From: Pedosphaera sp.
GTDB lineage: Bacteria > Verrucomicrobiota > Verrucomicrobiia > Limisphaerales > SXQI01
Direction of reading: 5' to 3'
Length of the DNA: 64,000 bases
NCBI GenBank assembly: GCA_025359965.1
Contig: JANYDC010000027.1
Location: forward strand, 15 to 64,014
Part shown: piece by piece, positions 10,245 to 37,208 of the stretch
Numbering within the stretch: the stretch's first letter is position 1
How the letters are laid out: the number at the start of each line of letters is the position of its first letter
Notes under the pieces: generated by a model
The model's database searches: none
What the model was told of the DNA's origin: nothing
What the model saw: the letters and a program-made list of their open reading frames with translations, nothing else
Translations under genes and position numbers: made by a program

Positions 10245-11678
10245 TCAGGTTTTGGATGGAATCCTGACTCTAAAACAGGAGCCGGAACCCAGGGTGCTGG
10301 ATGCCTGAATGGCGCCTCCGTGAGCCTCAACAATTGCCTTGCTTATGGCAAGCCCAAGCCCGGTGCCTCCAGTCGCGCCAGTGCGCGATGCGTCCGCACG
10401 ATAGAAGCGCTCAAAAATACGAGCCAAATCCGCCTCGGCGATTCCCGGGCCGTTATCTGTAACAGTAATGACGGCGAATGACGGCTCAGTGAAAGACGCC
10501 ACGCGGACCTCACCGCCACTTCTATTATGAACAATGGCATTGGTGAGCAGATTGGCCATGACCTGCGCCAAACGGTCAGTATCCGCCATGCACGGAGCAG
10601 CTTTAAGATCAACGATAAGACTCACGCCCCGTTCGTCAGCAAAGGGGCGTATGAGATCAGCTGATTCCCGCGTCAAATCGGCAAGATCGCAAGGCTGCTG
10701 CCTAAAGGACTCCTGGCCCGCATCAAACCGGGCCAACTGCAACAATGATTCAATCAGCCGGCGCATCCGCTGTGCGGCGCGCTGACATGTCTCCGCCGTC
10801 GCCTTGTAATCGGCCGCCGTGCGCTCGCGCGCGAGTGTGGTCTGGGTCTGGGATAAGATCACAGTGACTGGAGTGCGAAGCTCATGAGAGGCATCAGAGG
10901 TGAAGCGGGCCTGCTGGGTAAACGCGGCGTCAAGACGAGCGAACGTGGAATTGAGCACCGCCGCCAACTGTCCAAACTCGCTGTCAGTTTCAGTGGCGCT
11001 GATCCGGTGGGAAAGGTCTCCGCCGGCGATTTTGGCAGCTGCCTCGGTAATTTCATGGATCGGGCGAATTGCGCGCGTGGCAAGCCACCAACCCCCGGCC
11101 AAACCCAGCGTCAAAACCACACCACCAAACAGCAACATCCAGAGCGCAAGCTGGCGCAAACGGCCGATCTCCGGGGCAACTGAACGCCCCACCAGAACAC
11201 ATTCTCCTGGCGGGGTGAACTCATAAAGCTCACGCGAATCGCCCTGCATTCGAAATTGGGATCGGGGCATGCCTCGAAGAAATGGCGGGGGTTGAAACAC
11301 CACTGCAGGCCCATTTTCGGATCGCTTTGACACTACGCCGCCAGGCTCCCAAACGATGAAATAAAACCCATCTTCATTGGCTTCAAAGAGATCGGAAACG
11401 TTTTCCCGGGGCCGCCTGCCTCCAGGCGGAGGAAAACCCCCTTCATCCGGAGGGGGATCCATGCGCAAACCAGGTCGCCCCTCAGGCCTTCCTCCACGAG
11501 GAGGGGGACGAAGCGATTCCGACAGCAGCCTCAAACGATGTTGCAGCCCCTGGTCAACTCGTCTCATTTCATCGCCTTGCTGAAGCCGGTGGGCCGTGAA
11601 GCCAAACCCCGCCAGCACCAGCACCAGAATAAGTCCGTGCCAGATCTGCAACCGCCAACGTATGGAATGAAAGATCAT
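10245..11678 (-). CDS. Sensor histidine kinase (2 TM, periplasmic loop, HAMP, HisKA, HATPase_c)
   Basis: H-box SHELRTPVT, N/G boxes (NLLTNAIVH, TGLGLAI). Periplasmic loop is Pro/Gly/Arg-rich (PPPRGGRPEGRPGLRMDPPPDEGGFPPPGGRRP). Confidence 0.9.
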   Translation of the reverse strand: MIFHSIRWRLQIWHGLILVLVLAGFGFTAHRLQQGDEMRRVDQGLQHRLRLLSESLRPPPRGGRPEGRPGLRMDPPPDEGGFPPPGGRRPRENVSDLFEANEDGFYFIVWEPGGVVSKRSENGPAVVFQPPPFLRGMPRSQFRMQGDSRELYEFTPPGECVLVGRSVAPEIGRLRQLALWMLLFGGVVLTLGLAGGWWLATRAIRPIHEITEAAAKIAGGDLSHRISATETDSEFGQLAAVLNSTFARLDAAFTQQARFTSDASHELRTPVTVILSQTQTTLARERTAADYKATAETCQRAAQRMRRLIESLLQLARFDAGQESFRQQPCDLADLTRESADLIRPFADERGVSLIVDLKAAPCMADTDRLAQVMANLLTNAIVHNRSGGEVRVASFTEPSFAVITVTDNGPGIAEADLARIFERFYRADASRTGATGGTGLGLAISKAIVEAHGGAIQASSTLGSGSCFRVRIPSKT

Positions 11679-11680
11679 GC

Positions 11681-12334
11681 TCAGGTCTCTATGGAATAAC
11701 CGTGGCCGCGCCGGGTGATGATGAATTCATGGCCCAGCTTTTTGCGAATGTTGGAGACGTGAACATCCAACAGATTGGAAAGACTGCTGTCATCCTCATC
11801 AAACAAATGCTCGTAAAGAGCCGTGCGCGTGACCACCTCACCCCGATGCAAGGCCAGAAACGCCACCAACCCATATTCCCGCGCGGTGAGTTCAACTACT
11901 GCGCCTGCACGCGTGACAAGCCGGGCGGCCGTGTCGATGCTGACATCGCCGATATCGAGCGTGTTGCAGGTTTGTCCGGCACTACGGCGAATCAGGGCCC
12001 GCAGACGGGCCAGCAATTCATCGAGATCAAATGGTTTGACGACATAATCATCCGCGCCTGTATCAAGACCGCGCACGCGATCCATGGTCCGATCCCGGGC
12101 CGTCAACATGAGCACGGGCGTCTTCTTTGTTTTGCGCAGCCGGGCGAGAAGTTGCCAGCCGTCTAGTTTGGGAAGCATGACGTCGAGGACAATGGCGTCA
12201 TATTCCCAGCTCTCGGCCTTGTGCAGCCCCTCGTCCCCATCAGCGGCAGTGTCGACCGCGTAGCTCTCCTCGCGCAGGGCCTGTGCCAGGCTGCGGAGCA
12301 AATCGGGTTCATCTTCGACAACCAAAATTCTCAT
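11681..12334 (-). CDS. OmpR/PhoB family response regulator
   Basis: MRILVVEDEPDLL receiver start, D in LDVMLP, winged-helix C-terminus ...RRGHGYSI. Stop abuts the kinase start. Confidence 0.9.
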   Translation of the reverse strand: MRILVVEDEPDLLRSLAQALREESYAVDTAADGDEGLHKAESWEYDAIVLDVMLPKLDGWQLLARLRKTKKTPVLMLTARDRTMDRVRGLDTGADDYVVKPFDLDELLARLRALIRRSAGQTCNTLDIGDVSIDTAARLVTRAGAVVELTAREYGLVAFLALHRGEVVTRTALYEHLFDEDDSSLSNLLDVHVSNIRKKLGHEFIITRRGHGYSIET

Positions 12335-12636
12335 GGCATGTGGATCAGAAGTGTAAGGCAAACGCTGGGGATTGCACCAGAACCGACATCATGATCCAGC
12401 AAACCTTAAGGGAAGATGAAGAGATTATTTGCAGCCCGAGAAAATAATCAAAAACATTTTCGAACCTTCACCTTCCCTTAAGGTGGCCCAGCGTAAGGTG
12501 ACGGCGTGATCGAAATTAAACACATCAGAAAAGACTCTGGAAAAACTTGATCACATTGTTTGCGCCTCAACCGGTTTATTGAATGCATCGTGTCGATGCA
12601 GCGGCAGGCGCAAGGACAACGCAGCAATCAGAACCC

Positions 12637-13179
12637 ATGATGAAAATGAAACTCGTCCTCCTTACACTGGCACTCGGGATTTCCGCGAGCCTTCTCACCG
12701 CCCAAGACGCCCCAGCGCGCCCTGATGGACAACGCCCGCCTCCCCCTCGCGAAGGCGGACCCGGTCGCCAGGACCGTGAACATCGAGGGCCTGGCGGACC
12801 TGAAGAGGATCGTCGCGGCCCGGGTGGCCATGATGGCCCCGGAGGCCCGGAAGGTGATCGCCGAGGACCGCGTCCCCCGATGCCTCTCCTCGTCGCACTG
12901 GACTTGAATCACGACGGAGTCATTGACGCTGAGGAGATCGCCAAAGCCAGCGAGTCCTTGAAGAAATTGGACAAAAACGGCGACGGCAAACTAACCCCGG
13001 ATGAAATACATCCGCCCCGTCCCGGCGGACGAGGAGGACCCGGCGGCCCCGGACCTGATGGTCGCCCTGAAGGTCCTGGTCCACGGCATGACGATCGACC
13101 ACGCCATGAAGGTGGCCCCCGAGGGGACGATGCACCGCGCGGGGAAGGACGCCCACCCCGCCCTGCTCCAGAAAACTAA
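12637..13179 (+). CDS. Secreted EF-hand calcium-binding protein with Pro/Gly/Arg-rich low-complexity flanks
   Basis: MMKMKLVLLTLALGISASLLTAQD signal peptide. Two EF loops DLNHDGVIDAEE and DKNGDGKLTPDE. Flanks are GPGGP/RRGP repeats. Confidence 0.65.
   Translation: MMKMKLVLLTLALGISASLLTAQDAPARPDGQRPPPPREGGPGRQDREHRGPGGPEEDRRGPGGHDGPGGPEGDRRGPRPPMPLLVALDLNHDGVIDAEEIAKASESLKKLDKNGDGKLTPDEIHPPRPGGRGGPGGPGPDGRPEGPGPRHDDRPRHEGGPRGDDAPRGEGRPPRPAPEN
12700..13170 (+). repeat. GC-rich low-complexity coding repeats (ggaccc/ggcggccc/cgaggacc codon runs)
   Basis: Repeated GGPGGP / DRRGPGG / GPRP coding units visible in the DNA. Generates many overlapping shadow ORFs on both strands. Confidence 0.6.
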
Positions 13180-13393
13180 GCATCCCGAGTCGAAAGGCGC
13201 GTCAGCCATGACGCTGCCTTCCGGGAAGCTAATGATGCGCCGAACCACTCGCGCCCACGGGTGGTTTCGGGGCATTTTTGCCCCCCCCGGAGCACGCCAA
13301 ACAAACAGCATTTGGCACCCAGCCTGCTGCAACAATGAGGTTGCCAAAATAGCGAAAAAGCGAAGAATTAAACTGTACCGAGATTGCAAACCA

Positions 13394-16300
13394 ATGATTG
13401 AACGCCTGAATGATCCGCTTCGTCCGAGGGCGGGATGGACTACGACTCCGAACTTACGACTCTGGATGCAGTTGACCTTGTTAGGCGTGCTTTTGCTGGT
13501 TGGGCTTGGAGGAAGTGCTCTTGGACATCCAATCATTTCTGAATTTCTCGCCAGCAATACCCGAGGATTGCTTGATGAAGACCGGCAAACCAGCGATTGG
13601 ATTGAATTGTATAATCCCACCTTCGCATCGATCGACCTAGGCAACTATGCACTGACTGATACCGCCGGCGATTTGCTTAAATGGAAATTCCCATCAACAA
13701 ACCTGGCGTCAGGTCAGTTTATGGTGGTCTTTGCCTCAGGCAAGAACCGCCGGATAACGGGGCAGCCTCTCCATACTAGCTTCAGTTTGGCTGCCACGGG
13801 GGAGTATCTTGCGCTGACCACAATTGACGAAACGACCATCGTTTCTGAGTTTGGGCCGGTTTACCCCGCGCAATCACCGGATATATCCTATGGATGGATT
13901 GGCAGCACCAACGAGCTGGCCACATTTTTTAATCCCCCCACACCTGGCCAACCCAATCCAATGGTCCCCTTTGAGACTGCGGCGAACGTAGGGTTCTCCC
14001 TGCCAAGTGGGGGGTACGCCACCAATACCACAGTGATTCTTTCCAGCTCAGAAACCAATGGGTTCATTCGATTCACGATCAATGGTACAGAACCCAAGGC
14101 CACCTCGCCGGTATATGTCAACCCCTTGCAAATCTTCAAAACCACCGTGGTCAGGGCCCGCGTTTTTGCGCCCGACAAGGCTCCAGGCCCACTCCGCTCG
14201 GAAACCTACCACTTGATTGAACCCGGGCTGGCGTCGTTCTCATCGAACCTGCCCCTGCTCATCCTCAGCACTTTCGGCGCTGGAGTTAGCGAATCAACCA
14301 AAACAATCACATCTTTCACATTGGCCGAACCGCGCAAAGATACGGGTCGAACAACCCTTACAAGCCCGGCAACAGCGGAAGGACGTGGAGTGATCAAAGT
14401 GCGTGGCAGTAGTTCATTGCAGTTCCCAAAACACAGCCTCGCCTTTGAGATTCAGGATGAGTTCGGCGCCGACCGTAAAATGTCACTTCTCGGCCTTCCA
14501 GAGGAATCCGATTGGGTTCTCTATGCTCCTTACACAGAAAAGACCCTCATTCGTGACGTTCTGTCGTACGAGCTTTTCGGAAAGATGGGCCACTACAGTG
14601 TGCGAACCCGTTATGTGGAGGTGTTTCTGGACACGAGCGGGAACAAGGTGGCAACCAGCGATTACGCGGGAGTTTATATTTTGGTCGAGAAGATCAAGCG
14701 AGGCAAGGACCGGGTGGACATCCAACAATTATTACCAAGTCACTCGACGCCACCCGAGGTTACGGGTGGATACATCTTCAAGAAGGACCGATTAGACCCG
14801 GGCGACAGCGGATTTTTCACGCCGCAACAACAACTGGCGTTTGTTGAACCCAAGGAGCAGGAGATCACCAAGCCTCAAAGATCATACCTGAGCCAGTTTT
14901 TTGGCAACTTTGAAACGGCTTTGTATGGCGCCAATTTCGCGAACCCCACCAATGGATGGTTAGCATACATAGACGCCTCGTCGTTCATCGACAACCACTT
15001 GCTCGTGGAGGGCACCAAAAACATCGATGGATACCGACTTAGCTCGTACATGTTTAAGGACCGTGACCAAAAACTGAAAATGGGGCCTGCGTGGGATTTC
15101 AACTTGGTCATGGGAAATGCCAATTACCTCAATGGGTGGTTGACCAATGGCTGGTATTACGACGATGTGGGGGACGCGGAGTACCCATGGTATCGACGGC
15201 TCTTTCAGGATCCCAACTTCAAACAAATGTGGATTGATCGATGGGCGGAGTTGCGGGACGGCCCATGGTCGACCACTTCGCTGCTTCGCTCGGTTGATGA
15301 AAAGGCCGCCTACCTCAACGAGGCTCAAGCCAGAAACTATCGCACCTGGCCCATTCTCGGCACCTACGTCTGGCCCAATTGGTACATCGGAAACACCTAT
15401 GCCGAGGAGGTTGACTGGATGAAACAATGGATTGTGGGGAGAATGGCGTGGATGGACGGACAAAACGCGCGACGACCGAAACTGAGCAGAGCCACTGGTC
15501 CTGTGGCCAGTGGTGATTCCGTGCTGCTCTCCGGACCGAGCACCCCTATTTACTTCACCACCGATGGCTCTGATCCGAGGCTGCCTGGGGGAGCCATATC
15601 GCTGAAAGCAAAGATTTATTCCGTAAAATTGACTATTACAAACAATGTGAGGATCGTGGCGCGGGCCAAAACATTAAGTGGATGGAGCGCGCCCCTCGCT
15701 GCCTCATACATTGTTAATCCGTCCCCCCTGATCATCACTGAGATCATGTATCACCCCGCGGTGGCGGACACCGGTTTCATCGAGCTAATGAACACTGGCA
15801 AGGTCCCTCTGCCGTTGGTGGGTTTCAAAATTTCGGGGGGTATTGATTTTGATTTCAACACCAGCGCGATCACCCAAATCCTTCCTGGCGCACGAGTGGT
15901 CGTTGTGGCGAACCTTGCAGCTTTCAATGGCTTTTATGGCAACACCAACAACGTTGCCGGTGTTTACAAGGGCAGCCTTTCCAATTCAAAAGCCCAACTG
16001 ATCCTAACAGGTCCGATGGGTGAACCAATCCTTGATTTCAGCTATGAAGACAATTGGTGCCCCGCCACCGACGGCAAAGGGTTTTCCCTCGTGATCCGCG
16101 ATGAGCAAGGCGACCCGGCCTTGTGGAATCTAAGTAGGGGATGGCGTGCCAGTGGGCTTCCAAACGGCACGCCAGCGGGCACTGATCCTGGCTCCTCTAT
16201 ACCAGAGATCTGGATTAACGAAATTCTCACTCGCAGTACGCCCCCATTCTCGGACACGATCGAGATCTACAATCCGGGCAACTCCACGGCTGATATCAGC

Positions 16301-17815
16301 AACTGGATTCTCTCCGACGAAACCGCCACCACCAACGGGTACGTTTTTCCAGCAGACAGCAAAATAGCCCCGAATGAGTATCTCATCGTGACTGGTGACC
16401 AACTTTCTTCGACCACTGCGACCCGAACCGGGTTCTCCCTCCGTGCCGCAGGCGAAACCGTCTATCTCTGGTCCGCCGACACCAACCATATTCTCACCGG
16501 TTACGCGAACCGTTTTAACTGCCAGGATGCTTTTGAGAATGTTTCCTTTGGTCGGCAAACCAGGTCAGATGGAAAACTGGAACACCCGCCTCAAAAACGC
16601 CCGACGTTTGGGCGCGAAAACTTCGTTCCAAAAGTGGGACCCCTTGTCATCACCGAAATTTTCGCCTCACCCAACGTCCCGGGTCATTCCTTCATCGAAC
16701 TCAAGAACGTCAGCCTAGTGCCCCTGACTCTTGCTCAACCGGGTGATCCCGCGAAGACATGGGAAATCGCAGGGATAGACTTCCAGTTTCCAACCGCCGC
16801 CTTGATACCAGCGGATGGTTTTGCCCTGATCGTAAAAACCAACCCCGCCGGTTTCAGGACGCGCTTTCAAGTTCCTGCCGAAGTCCCCATCTTCGGCCCG
16901 TTTCTTGGCGAATTGAACGCCTTTGGAGAGGAGCTATCTATCCTCCAGCCTCAAGTCCATACAAACTCTCTGGGCGTCACGCAAATATTGAAACCCAAAT
17001 CGGATGAGGTTGCATTTCTTGACAGCAGCGCATGGCCGGGACTTCTTGCCAATGGCGATGTAAATATTGAAAGAGTGTTTTTGACTGGCTACGGCAAAGA
17101 CCCAGCCAACTGGCGTGAACCACCGGGAGGCATTTCTCCTGGCAGATACAATGTCAATGCCGCCAAACTCCCCCCGGCTCTGGTGATCAATTCACCGAAC
17201 CCAGTTTACGATGGAGTGCGAAGCCTCCTTGCTGGATGGGCCTCGCGCGACACCGCTTTGGACGGTGGACCTGTCACGGTTGAATGGAGCCTGACTTCAG
17301 GTCCGGCACCGCTCGAATTTGAAAGCCGCCAAAGTGAATCGACTGTCGCGCGGTTCCGGATCCCAGGAATCTACGACGTCAGATTCTCCGCCTCAGATGG
17401 CTTCACCAACACATCGATTAGCAAAACCATTTCCGTTCTGCCTAATTCGGAGTACCAGCAATGGGCGACATCCATTTTTAACCCAAGCCAGCTGGCTGAT
17501 CCCGTCATCAGCGGCATGACGGCCGATCCCGATTCCGATGGGGCCACCAACGCCGACGAATGGCTCGCCGGAACCGACCCCCTTGATGGCAAGAATTTCC
17601 TTGGGCTCAATTTAGTCTCCGCCTCAGCTAATGGGATTGCTCTTCAATTCCAGGGTCAAACAGGACTCTGGTATGCGGTGCAAAAGCGCGGATTGGTAAA
17701 AGATTCAGAATGGGAAACACTTGCGACTGTGGCAGGCTCCGCATCCGTACAAATTACGGTTCCCGTTCAAGATGCGAGTAGTTATTTTCGAGTCTCCACA
17801 CTCCCGGCCCAATAG
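13394..17815 (+). CDS. Giant secreted protein: four lamin-tail domains, CotH kinase-like domain, PKD-like domain
   Basis: Lamin-tail motifs ISEFLASN...DWIELYNPT, IITEIMYHP...GFIELMNTG, IWINEILT...DTIEIYNPG, VITEIFASP...SFIELKNVS. CotH-like core LPLLILSTFG...VIKVRGSSSLQFPKHSLAFEI...DWVLYAPYTEKTLIRDVLSYELFGKMG. PKD-like TVEWSLTSGPAPLEF. Signal-like MQLTLLGVLLLVGLGGSALG. Start ambiguous (13208, 13394 or 13466, all in frame). Confidence 0.8.
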   Translation: MIERLNDPLRPRAGWTTTPNLRLWMQLTLLGVLLLVGLGGSALGHPIISEFLASNTRGLLDEDRQTSDWIELYNPTFASIDLGNYALTDTAGDLLKWKFPSTNLASGQFMVVFASGKNRRITGQPLHTSFSLAATGEYLALTTIDETTIVSEFGPVYPAQSPDISYGWIGSTNELATFFNPPTPGQPNPMVPFETAANVGFSLPSGGYATNTTVILSSSETNGFIRFTINGTEPKATSPVYVNPLQIFKTTVVRARVFAPDKAPGPLRSETYHLIEPGLASFSSNLPLLILSTFGAGVSESTKTITSFTLAEPRKDTGRTTLTSPATAEGRGVIKVRGSSSLQFPKHSLAFEIQDEFGADRKMSLLGLPEESDWVLYAPYTEKTLIRDVLSYELFGKMGHYSVRTRYVEVFLDTSGNKVATSDYAGVYILVEKIKRGKDRVDIQQLLPSHSTPPEVTGGYIFKKDRLDPGDSGFFTPQQQLAFVEPKEQEITKPQRSYLSQFFGNFETALYGANFANPTNGWLAYIDASSFIDNHLLVEGTKNIDGYRLSSYMFKDRDQKLKMGPAWDFNLVMGNANYLNGWLTNGWYYDDVGDAEYPWYRRLFQDPNFKQMWIDRWAELRDGPWSTTSLLRSVDEKAAYLNEAQARNYRTWPILGTYVWPNWYIGNTYAEEVDWMKQWIVGRMAWMDGQNARRPKLSRATGPVASGDSVLLSGPSTPIYFTTDGSDPRLPGGAISLKAKIYSVKLTITNNVRIVARAKTLSGWSAPLAASYIVNPSPLIITEIMYHPAVADTGFIELMNTGKVPLPLVGFKISGGIDFDFNTSAITQILPGARVVVVANLAAFNGFYGNTNNVAGVYKGSLSNSKAQLILTGPMGEPILDFSYEDNWCPATDGKGFSLVIRDEQGDPALWNLSRGWRASGLPNGTPAGTDPGSSIPEIWINEILTRSTPPFSDTIEIYNPGNSTADISNWILSDETATTNGYVFPADSKIAPNEYLIVTGDQLSSTTATRTGFSLRAAGETVYLWSADTNHILTGYANRFNCQDAFENVSFGRQTRSDGKLEHPPQKRPTFGRENFVPKVGPLVITEIFASPNVPGHSFIELKNVSLVPLTLAQPGDPAKTWEIAGIDFQFPTAALIPADGFALIVKTNPAGFRTRFQVPAEVPIFGPFLGELNAFGEELSILQPQVHTNSLGVTQILKPKSDEVAFLDSSAWPGLLANGDVNIERVFLTGYGKDPANWREPPGGISPGRYNVNAAKLPPALVINSPNPVYDGVRSLLAGWASRDTALDGGPVTVEWSLTSGPAPLEFESRQSESTVARFRIPGIYDVRFSASDGFTNTSISKTISVLPNSEYQQWATSIFNPSQLADPVISGMTADPDSDGATNADEWLAGTDPLDGKNFLGLNLVSASANGIALQFQGQTGLWYAVQKRGLVKDSEWETLATVAGSASVQITVPVQDASSYFRVSTLPAQ

Positions 17816-34362: not shown

Positions 34363-35031
34363 TTAGCGCGTTTTGCGGCGCAGCAGGCATTCACTCCACC
34401 ACACGGCCATGAAAGCCAGCGCAACAGAGACACCAAGCAGCCGAAAAGCATCGGCGTCCTGTCCGATTTGGACTGATTGATAAATGGCCAAGGAAAGTGT
34501 GGAAGTCTGGCCCGGAATATTACCAGCCAACATGATGGTAGCGCCGAATTCTCCCAAGGCCCTCGCAAAGGCCAAAAGCATCCCTCCCAATATACCGCGT
34601 GATGCGAGCGGCAAGGAAATAGTGAAAAACACACGCCAGTCCCCCGCTCCAAGGGTGCGTGCAATTTGTTCAAGGCGCGGGTCCACTCCCTCAAAAGCCA
34701 ATCTGGACGAGCGAACCAGCAAGGGAAAAGACATCACTCCCAGAGCAATCAAAACACCACGCCAGGTAAAAACAAAATCAAAGCCAAAGTGATCATGAAA
34801 AAATCCACCCACCGCACCTCGCCGTCCCAAAATCTTCAGCAAAATAAGTCCGGTAGCCACAGGAGGCATCACCAGAGGCAGGGAAACAATCGTTTCCAGC
34901 AGTGATTTGCCCGGCCATTTGAAACGGGCCAACAGCCAAGCGACACCCAGCCCAAAAGGCAGAATGATGATGGTGCTTAGAGCCGACACCCAGGCGGTGA
35001 ACCAAATGATTTGCCACTCTTCGGCGCTCAT
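34363..35031 (-). CDS. modB: Molybdate ABC transporter permease
   Basis: EAA-loop region. 222 aa, 5 TM. Adjacent to modA and modC. Confidence 0.85.
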   Translation of the reverse strand: MSAEEWQIIWFTAWVSALSTIIILPFGLGVAWLLARFKWPGKSLLETIVSLPLVMPPVATGLILLKILGRRGAVGGFFHDHFGFDFVFTWRGVLIALGVMSFPLLVRSSRLAFEGVDPRLEQIARTLGAGDWRVFFTISLPLASRGILGGMLLAFARALGEFGATIMLAGNIPGQTSTLSLAIYQSVQIGQDADAFRLLGVSVALAFMAVWWSECLLRRKTR

Positions 35032-35049
35032 GTGGTGGCACGCTACGCC

Positions 35050-35808
35050 TTACTTGGGAATGATAAAACCAAATTTCTCAAAGACTTTCGCAGCATCCAC
35101 GGAATCAATGAAGTGAAGGAATTTTTTTGCCGCTTCAGGTTGCGCGGCATCTTTCACCATGGCCAGCGGATAGCTGATATTTGGGGTGTCGGAAAGCGGG
35201 ATTTCGTAGGCGATTTTGACTTTTTTTGAGATGGCCGCATCCGTCTTATACACAATACCTGCCTCCGCATTCCCTGATTCCACCACAGCCAGAGCAGCGC
35301 GGACATTTTCAGTGGGGACGACCTTGGCCTCGATGGTGGACCAAAGATTTTGTTTTAGGAGATATTCTCTGGCATAAATACCTGCCGGTACCGTTTTAGG
35401 TTCGGCCAGGGCAAGATGCTTTACCTTTTCTGTCGTCAGATCCCTGACATTGTCAATTGCCGCACCTCCGTCGGCAGCGACAACAATGACCAGTGAGTTT
35501 GACAAACGGCTTTTGCGGGTAGTTTTCAGGATAAGCCCCTTCTTTTCCAAACCATCCATTTTAGCCTCATCAGCTGAGAAGAAAATGTCGGCGGGCGCCC
35601 CTTCTTCGATTTGGCGAGCAAGTGTGCTGGATGAGCCAAAATTGAAAATGATTTTGTCTCCAGACTGTTTCTCGTGAATCCCAGCAATCTCCTTAAGCGA
35701 TTCAGTAAGACTAGCGGCAGCAAAAACGATGACGTTCGCAGCGTGCAGGCTGACGGTGGCAATGAGTGCCAGAGCGACGCACGAAGCATATAATGAACGA
35801 AGCCTCAT
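35050..35808 (-). CDS. modA: Molybdate-binding periplasmic protein
   Basis: Signal peptide MRLRSLYASCVALALIATVSLHA. VFAAASL...FNFGSS motif of ModA. Confidence 0.85.
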   Translation of the reverse strand: MRLRSLYASCVALALIATVSLHAANVIVFAAASLTESLKEIAGIHEKQSGDKIIFNFGSSSTLARQIEEGAPADIFFSADEAKMDGLEKKGLILKTTRKSRLSNSLVIVVAADGGAAIDNVRDLTTEKVKHLALAEPKTVPAGIYAREYLLKQNLWSTIEAKVVPTENVRAALAVVESGNAEAGIVYKTDAAISKKVKIAYEIPLSDTPNISYPLAMVKDAAQPEAAKKFLHFIDSVDAAKVFEKFGFIIPK

Positions 35809-36128
35809 CGCGCCTGAGTTAAAGAGTGAGTTCGATTTGAATGCACGACACGACCTGCGGCAGGAAGACCGGTTCGAAGCCCAACAAAACGCCTAAGAGT
35901 TGGAATCGAAAGAATCCGAAACCGGGGTGTGGGCGAAATCGGGTTGCAAGGTTGTGTCTTCATTTCCTTGAGCGAAGGTAAACGGCAAATTAGCCAAGGT
36001 ACAGGGATAGTAATTTCAGGCCTTTGGCGACGAGAGAAATTTTGACTGCGCTGAAGTGATACGCCGACGCAGTTTTGGTTTGGAAAAATGCCAGGTCTTA
36101 ATCTCAGCTTAAGGAGGAGCGTGGTAAT

Positions 36129-37208
36129 TTGTCGGCAGTCAGCGAAATCAATGATATGAAAACCAACGAATCGTCAATAGCAACGGATGTGGGTCCCAAG
36201 TGCTTCTACATTCCGATGGGGCGCCGCCGCTTTCTGCACAGCATCGCAACCACCTCGTCCGGTTTTGCGTTGTCTGGGTATTTGGCCGAGGCGCTCACAG
36301 TCACACCCCAAGTCACACAGGGGCCTTATTATCCTCTGGCCAAAAACATTCCACTAGACAAGGACAACGACCTTGTACAACTCAATGACAGCCTCACGGC
36401 AGCGACTGGAATTGTCACATATGTAAGCGGCAGGGTGTTGAATAGTAGTGGCGATCCAATCCGTGGCGCACTGGTCGAACTGTGGCATGCGGACGCCGGA
36501 GGAAATTATACCTATGCCACCAATGCGGCGAGAAATCCCGCCGCAGACCCGAATTTCGCCGGTTTTGGCCAGTTCCTGACCGGATCAAGCGGCGGATACC
36601 GTTTTCGCACAGTCAAAGCAGGTCTATATCGCGGACGCACGCGGCACCTCCATTTTGGTGTCACAATCCCAGGACAGTTGAAGCGCTACACGACGCAGTT
36701 GTTCTGGAACGAGGTGGCTAAGGACGCCAACGGAACTGTATGGGACACAACCAATGCCAATGATATGGTGCTCACCGGGATCACCAATTCAGCCCAGCGA
36801 GCCTCAGTCGTTAAGGATTTTACGGCTGTGGCCGGGACCACCACTGGAGAACAGGAGGCAAGTTGGGATATTGTGATGGGCCTGACTCCTATTGAGCCCA
36901 ATTATCCAGGGAGCGGAGGCTTGGTCGTGGCAGGGAGGGCCGTGTCGGGTCCGAACGGGAATCCACGTTACAAGATCACCCTGCCCGTCTACAGCGGCTA
37001 CAGCTACGAGGTTTATTCAAACCCGACCTTCGCTAGTCTGGCCTGGTCGGCCCGACCTTTTTCGCTTAGCCAGACCGGCAGTATTGATCGAAACATTTAT
37101 ACTGCAACGGCGGAGGGAAGTCTGGACATCTACCTTGATGCGGCAGCGGTGAAAGGATTTTACTACGTGTCATTCCGAGAGCCGAACGCAAATGTTGGCA
37201 CCCCGTGA
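36129..37208 (+). CDS. TAT-exported intradiol ring-cleavage dioxygenase-like protein with C-terminal extension
   Basis: TTG start 10 nt after strong SD aaggagga. RRRFLHS TAT motif. VELWHADAGGNY and RTRHLHF motifs of dioxygenase/protocatechuate-dioxygenase-like fold. Confidence 0.65.
   Translation: MSAVSEINDMKTNESSIATDVGPKCFYIPMGRRRFLHSIATTSSGFALSGYLAEALTVTPQVTQGPYYPLAKNIPLDKDNDLVQLNDSLTAATGIVTYVSGRVLNSSGDPIRGALVELWHADAGGNYTYATNAARNPAADPNFAGFGQFLTGSSGGYRFRTVKAGLYRGRTRHLHFGVTIPGQLKRYTTQLFWNEVAKDANGTVWDTTNANDMVLTGITNSAQRASVVKDFTAVAGTTTGEQEASWDIVMGLTPIEPNYPGSGGLVVAGRAVSGPNGNPRYKITLPVYSGYSYEVYSNPTFASLAWSARPFSLSQTGSIDRNIYTATAEGSLDIYLDAAAVKGFYYVSFREPNANVGTP

Follow-up and report, generated by a model that had tools for sequence, protein, structure and literature searches.

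What links a sensor kinase to a secreted protein encoded back to back with it, when both carry the same Pro/Gly/Arg-rich stretches? The question is raised by a 64,000-nucleotide (64-kb) stretch of Pedosphaera sp., a member of the Verrucomicrobiota (GenBank assembly GCA_025359965.1, contig JANYDC010000027.1, positions 15 to 64,014 of the forward strand), referred to here as the window. Verrucomicrobiota are abundant in soil, peat and freshwater, and their signalling systems are, to our knowledge, almost entirely unstudied. The original prediction, made from the letters of this stretch without database searches, described a two-component system opposite a divergently transcribed gene for a secreted EF-hand protein, and the open reading frame (ORF) map and Pfam searches agree with it in genes and coordinates (Table 1). 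The kinase and regulator genes are co-oriented on the minus strand with a gap of 2 nt and form a classical pair, a HisKA-type kinase with a receiver/winged-helix regulator, for which all Pfam scores exceed the cut-offs. On balance, the locus probably holds an autoregulated OmpR-family two-component system of Verrucomicrobiota, with the divergent EF-hand gene as one direct target. This reading is built on features demonstrated at the level of sequence: the arrangement of the genes, the conservation of an operator, the membership of a regulon, the periplasmic position of the kinase loop, and a Pro/Gly-rich (P/G-rich) hallmark that co-varies between loop and target.

The intergenic region carries two copies of a hexamer direct repeat, CTTCAY-N5-CTTAAG, which are the sole exact matches in the window and form the arms of a 19-nt inverted repeat. 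The motif resembles the PmrA box, in which two XTTAAY hexamers 5 nt apart overlap the -35 element (PMC10570014). Its core, CTTAAGG, is present in 52 of 68 orthologous regulator-upstream regions. Strict boxes number 135 in 1.02 Mb of orthologous loci plus the window; chance would yield about 8 in the loci without the window. Of the 132 boxes followed by an ORF, 59 stand before the regulator gene, 25 before a YHYH gene and 22 before an EF-hand gene; the remainder stand before genes for PSCyt1, secretin-N, Dioxygenase_C-like, LTXXQ, PQQ-propeller, receiver-only and GT-C-like proteins. The consensus across loci reads CTTCAy-N5-CTTAAGGT, followed after 10-11 nt by TAnnnT. The spacing from box to -10 is fixed, and therefore the box occupies the place of the -35 element; from this position relative to the -10, the regulator is predicted to activate rather than to repress. 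At many loci the start codon falls 39 nt after the start of the box, about 7 nt past the -10 (most YHYH genes and several regulator genes, e.g. at loci L018, L073 and L083), and the sequences suggest that box-regulated transcripts are leaderless in many orthologous loci.

The same association appears in a reverse test that starts from EF-hand family genes in metagenome contigs. Of the 65 such loci with enough upstream sequence, 30 carry a sense box within 400 bp upstream of the EF-hand gene. Among these 30 are 13 of the 35 loci without an adjacent regulator. Chance would give about 0.002 per locus. Because sense boxes recur in this test, the EF-hand family qualifies as a core member of the regulon, whether linked to the regulator or not. 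The recurrence of the box upstream of orthologous regulators and of EF-hand genes alike, unlinked ones included, makes the EF-hand gene of the window very probably a direct target of the regulator.

How constant is the gene arrangement? In all 80 orthologous kinase loci the regulator lies immediately upstream. An EF-hand family gene occurs within 8 kb in 25 of them (directly adjacent in 17), and all 25 are upstream on the opposite strand, with none in any other position (p ~1e-15). A 71%-identical relative has kept the MarR, methyltransferase, kinase, regulator and divergent EF-hand genes, with LexA as the downstream gene instead. The expectation that the EF-hand gene would be conserved beside orthologous regulator-kinase pairs is therefore borne out in part: it holds at 25 of the 80 loci, and the other 55 have a different divergent partner. 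Among these partners are YHYH proteins (some fused to PEBP), PSCyt1 proteins that contain EF-hand motifs and P/G-rich linkers, and small P/G-rich proteins that are secreted. It could be argued that adjacency and shared composition are coincidental, Pro/Gly-rich linkers being common in the exported proteins of the lineage; the invariant position of the 25 linked EF-hand genes and the operator boxes common to the system and its targets both speak against such a coincidence.

Table 1. Coordinates of the features of the locus, given as positions in the window.
Feature	Position	Strand	Remarks
Sensor histidine kinase gene	10245-11678	-	477 amino acids (aa); Pfam HAMP, HisKA, HATPase_c (ORF map and Pfam scan)
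Periplasmic sensor domain, PDC/PAS-like fold	11151-11591	-	residues 30-176
Pro/Gly/Arg-rich disordered insert RPPPRGGRPEGRPGLRMDPPPDEGGFPPPGGRRPRE	11403-11510	-	residues 57-92; 78% Pro+Gly+Arg
OmpR/PhoB-family response regulator	11681-12334	-	217 aa; Pfam Response_reg and Trans_reg_C
Putative operator box A TTCATCTTCCCTTAAGG	12404-12420	-	hexamer-N5-hexamer, faces the regulator-kinase operon
Putative operator box B TTCACCTTCCCTTAAGG	12467-12483	+	hexamer-N5-hexamer, faces the EF-hand gene
-10-like TAAGGT	12494-12499	+	downstream of box B
EF-hand protein gene, predicted Sec-exported	12637-13179	+	180 aa; ORF opens at 12583
Signal peptide MMKMKLVLLTLALGISASLLTAQ	12637-12705	+	read from the sequence; cut ...LTAQ|DAP; conserved A-Q-D/E after the hydrophobic core
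Canonical EF-hand loop DLNHDGVIDAEE	12901-12936	+	12 residues; columns invariant in the family alignment
Canonical EF-hand loop DKNGDGKLTPDE	12970-13005	+	12 residues; columns invariant in the family alignment
Antisense shadow ORFs	12628-12912, 12920-13183	-	Pro/Gly/Arg-rich mirror translations from GGN/CCN-rich coding sequence; not genes
Third box TTAATCTCAGCTTAAGG, TTAATC variant	36098-36114	+	~40 nt upstream of the Dioxygenase_C-like gene

The third box of the window precedes a gene for a Dioxygenase_C-like secreted protein with a twin-arginine translocation (TAT) signal (36156-37208, likely start 36156). The family is box-preceded also at loci L009 and L033, and the window gene is probably a further regulon member. 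Divergent from it and upstream lie ModB-/ModA-like molybdate transporter genes (34363-35808), labelled from reading their translations rather than from a family search and probably unrelated. In other genomes, box-preceded genes for LTXXQ-motif proteins were seen at L059 (~3181) and L035 (~9409), on the minus strand of each, and at L025 (~2608); PF07813 gives 25.4 bits for the L059 protein, just above the cut-off, and the small P/G-rich L025 protein falls below it. A multi-pass membrane protein of about 590 aa is box-preceded at L086 (5304-7085), L089 (80-1732), L121 (121-1872) and L125 (586-2352). It has a P/G-rich C-terminal region, no Pfam match and the look of a GT-C-type glycosyltransferase, which is a candidate label. 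Genes for YHYH proteins, MbnP and MauG-type dihaem peroxidases occur in box-linked operons beside both this kinase family and a second one described below (L008/L009, L175). These operons hint at a metal-related, perhaps copper, side of the regulon. A literature search on EF-hand proteins with two-component systems in Verrucomicrobia, and on MbnP/YHYH, found nothing directly relevant.

To which known system is the regulator closest? Its ORF (11681-12361, minus strand) opens at TTG 12361, and the likely true start is ATG 12334, as in gene callers and homologues. The best NCBIfam match is PmrA, and the nearest solved structures are DrrD (1kgs) and BasR/PmrA (4s04/4s05; E 2.6e-49). Assignment as a PmrA equivalog (NF007928) was rejected, with 213.5 bits against a cut-off of 330. 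The window system thus resembles PmrA/PmrB (BasR/BasS) of Enterobacteria in its OmpR/PhoB-family regulator, operator architecture and autoregulation, and differs from it by this score and by its sensor. The periplasmic loop of PmrB is short and carries ExxE motifs that bind iron, whereas the window sensor is a PDC-like domain of about 145 aa with a Pro/Gly/Arg-rich (P/G/R-rich) insert. The regulons are also unlike, consisting here of secreted EF-hand, YHYH, PSCyt1 and similar proteins, while PmrA controls lipopolysaccharide-modification genes (PMC10570014).

The kinase has two predicted transmembrane (TM) helices, TM1 at residues ~12-29 and TM2 at ~177-199, which enclose a periplasmic domain (~30-176) and are followed by HAMP, HisKA and HATPase_c. 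An AlphaFold model of residues 1-225, built with 18 homologues in the alignment (mean predicted local distance difference test score, pLDDT, 80.7), shows residues 6-56 as one long helix made of TM1 and a periplasmic extension, residues 57-93 as a disordered insert (pLDDT ~52) within a PDC/PAS-like sensor fold, residues 105-166 as a five-stranded sheet, and residues 168-218 as a helix through TM2 into HAMP. A long helix and a five-stranded antiparallel sheet between TM helices place the domain among the extracytoplasmic PDC/PAS-like sensors of the PhoQ, PhoR, CusS and ResE type. The loop lies in a sensor fold between two TM helices and before HAMP, and it is therefore periplasmic, as had been proposed from the sequence. 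Fold comparison points to the CusS sensor domain and is the informative one here, since a search of the PDB with the sensor-domain sequence returned no match. Kinase homologues align over their full length at 50-72% identity and are essentially all from Verrucomicrobiota; 272 kinase loci were found among GTDB species representatives (N-terminal alignment scan, one genome per species). The P/G/R-rich insert is present at the same position in all 120 listed homologues. Its length varies from 25 to 90 aa and its median Pro/Gly/Arg content is 61%, as against 22% in the rest of the kinase.

The likeness to CusS opens another possibility: the system may be a heavy-metal (Cu/Ag) CusRS/CopRS homologue and the EF-hand protein a periplasmic metal sponge in a copper-homeostasis regulon. 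The kinase is like CusS/CopS in its cytoplasmic part as well as in its sensor fold, TIGR01386 (CusS/CopS/CzcS) being its best NCBIfam match with 258.9 bits. The Joint Genome Institute (JGI) labels several homologues 'heavy metal sensor kinase', and relatives have YHYH genes and copper-associated MbnP/MauG-type genes that are adjacent or box-linked. However, this score falls short of the family cut-off (292.55), and the matched part spans only residues 173-474, with the sensor domain outside it and unmatched by sequence; the kinase was not accepted as a heavy-metal sensor. The sensor domain has no conserved metal-ligand residues (His, Met, Cys), and both EF-hand loops have the oxygen ligands of a canonical Ca2+ site. 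The CusR box of E. coli is a palindrome whose sequence differs from the operator found here. That operator is PmrA-box-like (PMC10570014). A copper system of this kind is, all told, quite unlikely.

What does the divergent gene encode? Its likely start is at 12637 (MMKMKLV...), backed by an identical database protein, P0001 (100%), and by all homologues; an exact look-up of the window protein in the contig index gave no record. The two canonical EF-hand loops that had been read in the secreted protein are confirmed by Pfam, with 38.9 bits for EF-hand_5 (cut-off 25.9), 30.8 for EF-hand_1 (cut-off 25.4) and a score above the cut-off for EF-hand_6. An EF-hand is taken here as a paired helix-loop-helix with a 12-residue loop, Asp or Asn at positions 1, 3 and 5, Gly at 6 and Glu at 12. 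From these canonical loops the protein is predicted to bind Ca2+. In the AlphaFold model the only helices are at residues 83-124 and the tails have pLDDT below 50, so that the window protein consists of a single EF-hand pair with disordered tails rich in P, G, R, E and D on both sides. The family has more than 1,900 members, secreted proteins with one to four EF-hand pair units each; the units are bordered by RPPPP...PL..ALD and ELRPPRP, with P/G-rich linkers in between. Other assignments were tried and rejected. The protein matches EF-hand families only and is no member of CpxP/Spy/ZraP (LTXXQ; PF07813, PF13801), and its score for XopAW is below the curated cut-off. Lanmodulin EF loops have Pro at position 2, where the loops of this protein have Leu or Lys, and the lanmodulin score is 18.6 bits against 135 (NF053806).

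Several observations weigh against the autoregulated system with the EF-hand gene as a direct target. In the window the EF-hand gene lies 170 nt from box B, compared with 39-90 nt in many other loci, which would give its transcript a long leader of about 130 nt. That the regulator binds the boxes is something we infer from their conservation and their resemblance to the PmrA box. The EF-hand protein is dispensable to the system, as follows from the different partners at 55 of the loci. In the alignment of homologous sensor domains nothing indicates a ligand, neither an acidic patch nor any conserved His, Cys or Met, and it is the nature of the target alone that suggests a Ca2+ response. Many relatives have a leaderless ATG 39 nt after the start of the box; at this spacing the window has a GTG (12506) that opens a 14-codon ORF out of the EF-hand frame. 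Transcription is predicted to begin at about 12506 for the EF-hand gene and at about 12381 for the regulator-kinase operon.

In the reading of an autoregulated system with a divergent target, the kinase would sense an envelope- or cation-related cue through its PDC-like periplasmic domain with the disordered P/G/R-rich insert, and would phosphorylate the regulator. The regulator would then bind the PmrA-box-like direct repeat that replaces the -35 element, one copy driving the regulator-kinase operon and the inverted copy the EF-hand gene. The EF-hand product would leave via Sec, bind Ca2+ by its one canonical pair and bear long disordered P/G/R-rich tails. Across genomes, the operator also stands before genes for YHYH, PSCyt1/EF-hand, MbnP-MauG-linked, Dioxygenase_C-like and LTXXQ proteins, many of which have P/G-rich segments.

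The composition that kinase loop and EF-hand protein have in common is where the original prediction began. The shared composition stood, and the shared ordered sequence did not, at least in the window. Composition-adjusted BLASTP of the loop against the EF-hand protein gave E=16, local alignments of the loop with the tails scored no better than those of shuffled loops (p=0.54-0.78), and no DNA-level repeat exists between the two genes. At the family level, the simple 4-mers RPPP, GGPG and PGGP are over-represented in both loops and tails. Could this be the coincidence considered above? The window similarity is purely compositional, the tails and the loop have variable lengths and predicted disorder, and GGN/CCN repeats expand readily, all of which would suit chance. 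Against this, stretches of 30 residues with at least 70% P+G+R occur in the window only in the kinase loop, the EF-hand protein and their antisense frames. Over the 80 loci, strict P/G/R-rich segments reach 2.0 per 10 kb within 1.5 kb upstream of the regulator and 0.3 per 10 kb elsewhere, a 6-7x difference. The upstream 1.5 kb contains such a segment in 22 of 71 loci, and in nine of these 22 the proteins are not of the EF-hand family.

A second test, which excluded regulator and kinase genes, asked for a 20-aa window with at least 60% P+G. Such a window is found in 50% (27/54) of box-preceded genes, compared with 2% of 630 neighbouring genes and 3% of the other genes that are signal-peptide-like. 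With the EF-hand family left out, 38% of the box-preceded genes are still P/G-rich (Mann-Whitney p=3e-10). In a second set, from metagenomes, the non-EF box-preceded genes are P/G-rich in 18% of cases versus 3%, which is the same direction and not significant (n=17). Coincidence is thus very improbable, and P/G-rich composition is, as far as sequences tell, a hallmark of the regulon and of the kinase family, co-varying with the tails of the partner.

Does the shared composition mean that the two proteins meet? The original prediction compared the EF-hand protein with CpxP/ZraP-type accessory proteins; the divergent position and the presence of the system's own operator bear the comparison out, and membership of the LTXXQ family does not. 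It is possible that the EF-hand protein acts on the kinase loop, perhaps in a Ca2+-dependent manner, and thereby modulates the kinase, which adds a step to the autoregulated system described above. One indication comes from 28 loop-tail pairs, in which the composition distance is 0.201 as against 0.242 +/- 0.009 for permuted pairings (p<0.0002). The co-variation is mainly in glycine (rho 0.71, with 0.24 for the cytoplasmic part of the kinase against the tails). It persists at rho 0.69 without near-duplicates (n=25), with a partial correlation of 0.66 on locus GC content, and within family 1 (0.77, n=17) as well as the other families (0.68, n=8, p=0.06). The pairs are not phylogenetically independent, and lineage-wide drift of periplasmic low-complexity segments could produce the same pattern, which leaves the co-variation suggestive, indicative but short of proof. 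None of the 20 kinases whose loops measure 35 aa or less has an EF-hand gene as neighbour (Fisher p=0.0002), an association that is confounded with clade. Median loop length and median P/G/R content are similar with or without an EF-hand gene nearby, and neither predicts EF-hand adjacency.

Further indications come from a second kinase family. The kinase beside P0044, a homologue of the EF-hand protein, belongs to a different family with the N-terminus M..FPLYAKILxWFFLN, and its homologues are named CpxA by JGI. The best match of its regulator is CpxR, with 200 bits below a cut-off of 341. The intergenic region carries TGTAAA-N5-TGTAAA, and this box fits the CpxR consensus GTAAA-N(4-8)-GTAAA (PMC5063474). 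This family too has a Pro-rich periplasmic insert, with a median maximum of 33% Pro in 30 aa (120 homologues). Of nine inspected loci, seven face an EF-hand family gene, an eighth a signal-peptide protein made almost wholly of P, G, R and Q, and one a small G/M-rich secreted protein; at one locus the divergent operon comprises EF-hand, YHYH and MbnP/MauG genes. The recurrence of insert and partner in a CpxRA-like family favours the accessory role. On the other side stand the lack of ordered loop-tail similarity in the window, the unrelated families that fill the partner slot in most loci of the window's own system, and the position of the EF-hand protein outside the LTXXQ family, since genuine LTXXQ regulon proteins of some genomes could fill the role of CpxP. 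An accessory or feedback role is a plausible hypothesis and a reasonable one, although we regard it as somewhat unlikely.

Alternatively, the P/G-rich segments may be the functional link themselves. The kinase loop would mimic the tails of the secreted targets and compete with them for a common partner, or co-bind it. This partner might be the EF-hand domain with Ca2+ bound, a protease or chaperone of the periplasm, a polymer of the envelope, or a ligand from the environment; polyphenols, to which proline-rich proteins are known to bind, are an example. In this way the system would gauge how heavily its regulon products are loaded or in what state they are, a logic that would be convergent in at least two kinase families (PmrA/CusR-like and CpxA-like). 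This mimicry is an unlikely proposal at present.

Among known systems, the closest architectural analogues are cpxP/cpxRA and zraP/zraSR of E. coli, where the gene for a small periplasmic protein is likewise divergent from, and controlled by, the two-component operon. Inhibition of the kinase by CpxP is established. The partner here is an EF-hand protein with disordered P/G-rich tails instead of an LTXXQ helical protein, and the system in the window itself is not Cpx-like but PmrA/CusR-like. It is the second Verrucomicrobial kinase family, with the same EF-hand family, that is CpxA/CpxR-like and has a GTAAA-N6-GTAAA-type box (PMC5063474). By analogy of function, the closest precedent is the CarSR-dependent EfhP of Pseudomonas, in which two-component control of a periplasmic EF-hand gene is likewise found, the Ca2+ link being predicted from sequence in our case. 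The carSR and efhP genes of Pseudomonas are unlinked, and we know of no P/G-rich low-complexity feature reported for the CarSR kinase or EfhP. P. aeruginosa needs the Ca2+-regulated CarSR (BqsSR) to transcribe efhP, whose product binds Ca2+, has two canonical EF-hands and is predicted to be periplasmic (PMC11559002). CarSR differs from the window system in kinase family and operator.

Around these genes, methyltransferase and MarR-family regulator genes sit upstream of the kinase, and the gene 3' of the EF-hand gene encodes a large CotH/lamin-tail-domain protein (Pfam scan). Its 1604-aa ORF (13001-17815) overlaps the 3' end of the EF-hand gene in a different frame, the protein probably starting near 13466 with the signal peptide MQLTLLGVLLLVGLGGSALG. 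Public Logan gene calls chose the long CotH ORF across the EF-hand gene and missed the latter. The three long antisense shadow ORFs that had been described (those of Table 1 and 12991-13644) are all present, two of them P/G/R-rich; none has a Pfam match, and they were rejected as genes.

Taken as a whole, the locus belongs to a known type, in which a two-component system faces a divergent gene for a periplasmic target; what sets it apart is the low-complexity P/G-rich sequence that recurs in both the sensor loop and the proteins of the regulon. For a two-component family that is widespread and uncharacterised, the analysis supplies an operator sequence, a candidate regulon and a predicted promoter architecture. 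Its unusual feature is a disordered Pro/Gly-rich sensor insert that is mirrored in secreted targets and recurs in a second kinase family. If this reflects lineage drift only, the system is an ordinary autoregulated one with a divergent target gene. If the link between loop and tails is physical or competitive, the kinase would monitor its output in a manner that is new for such sensors, and bacterial EF-hand proteins would gain a defined regulatory context.

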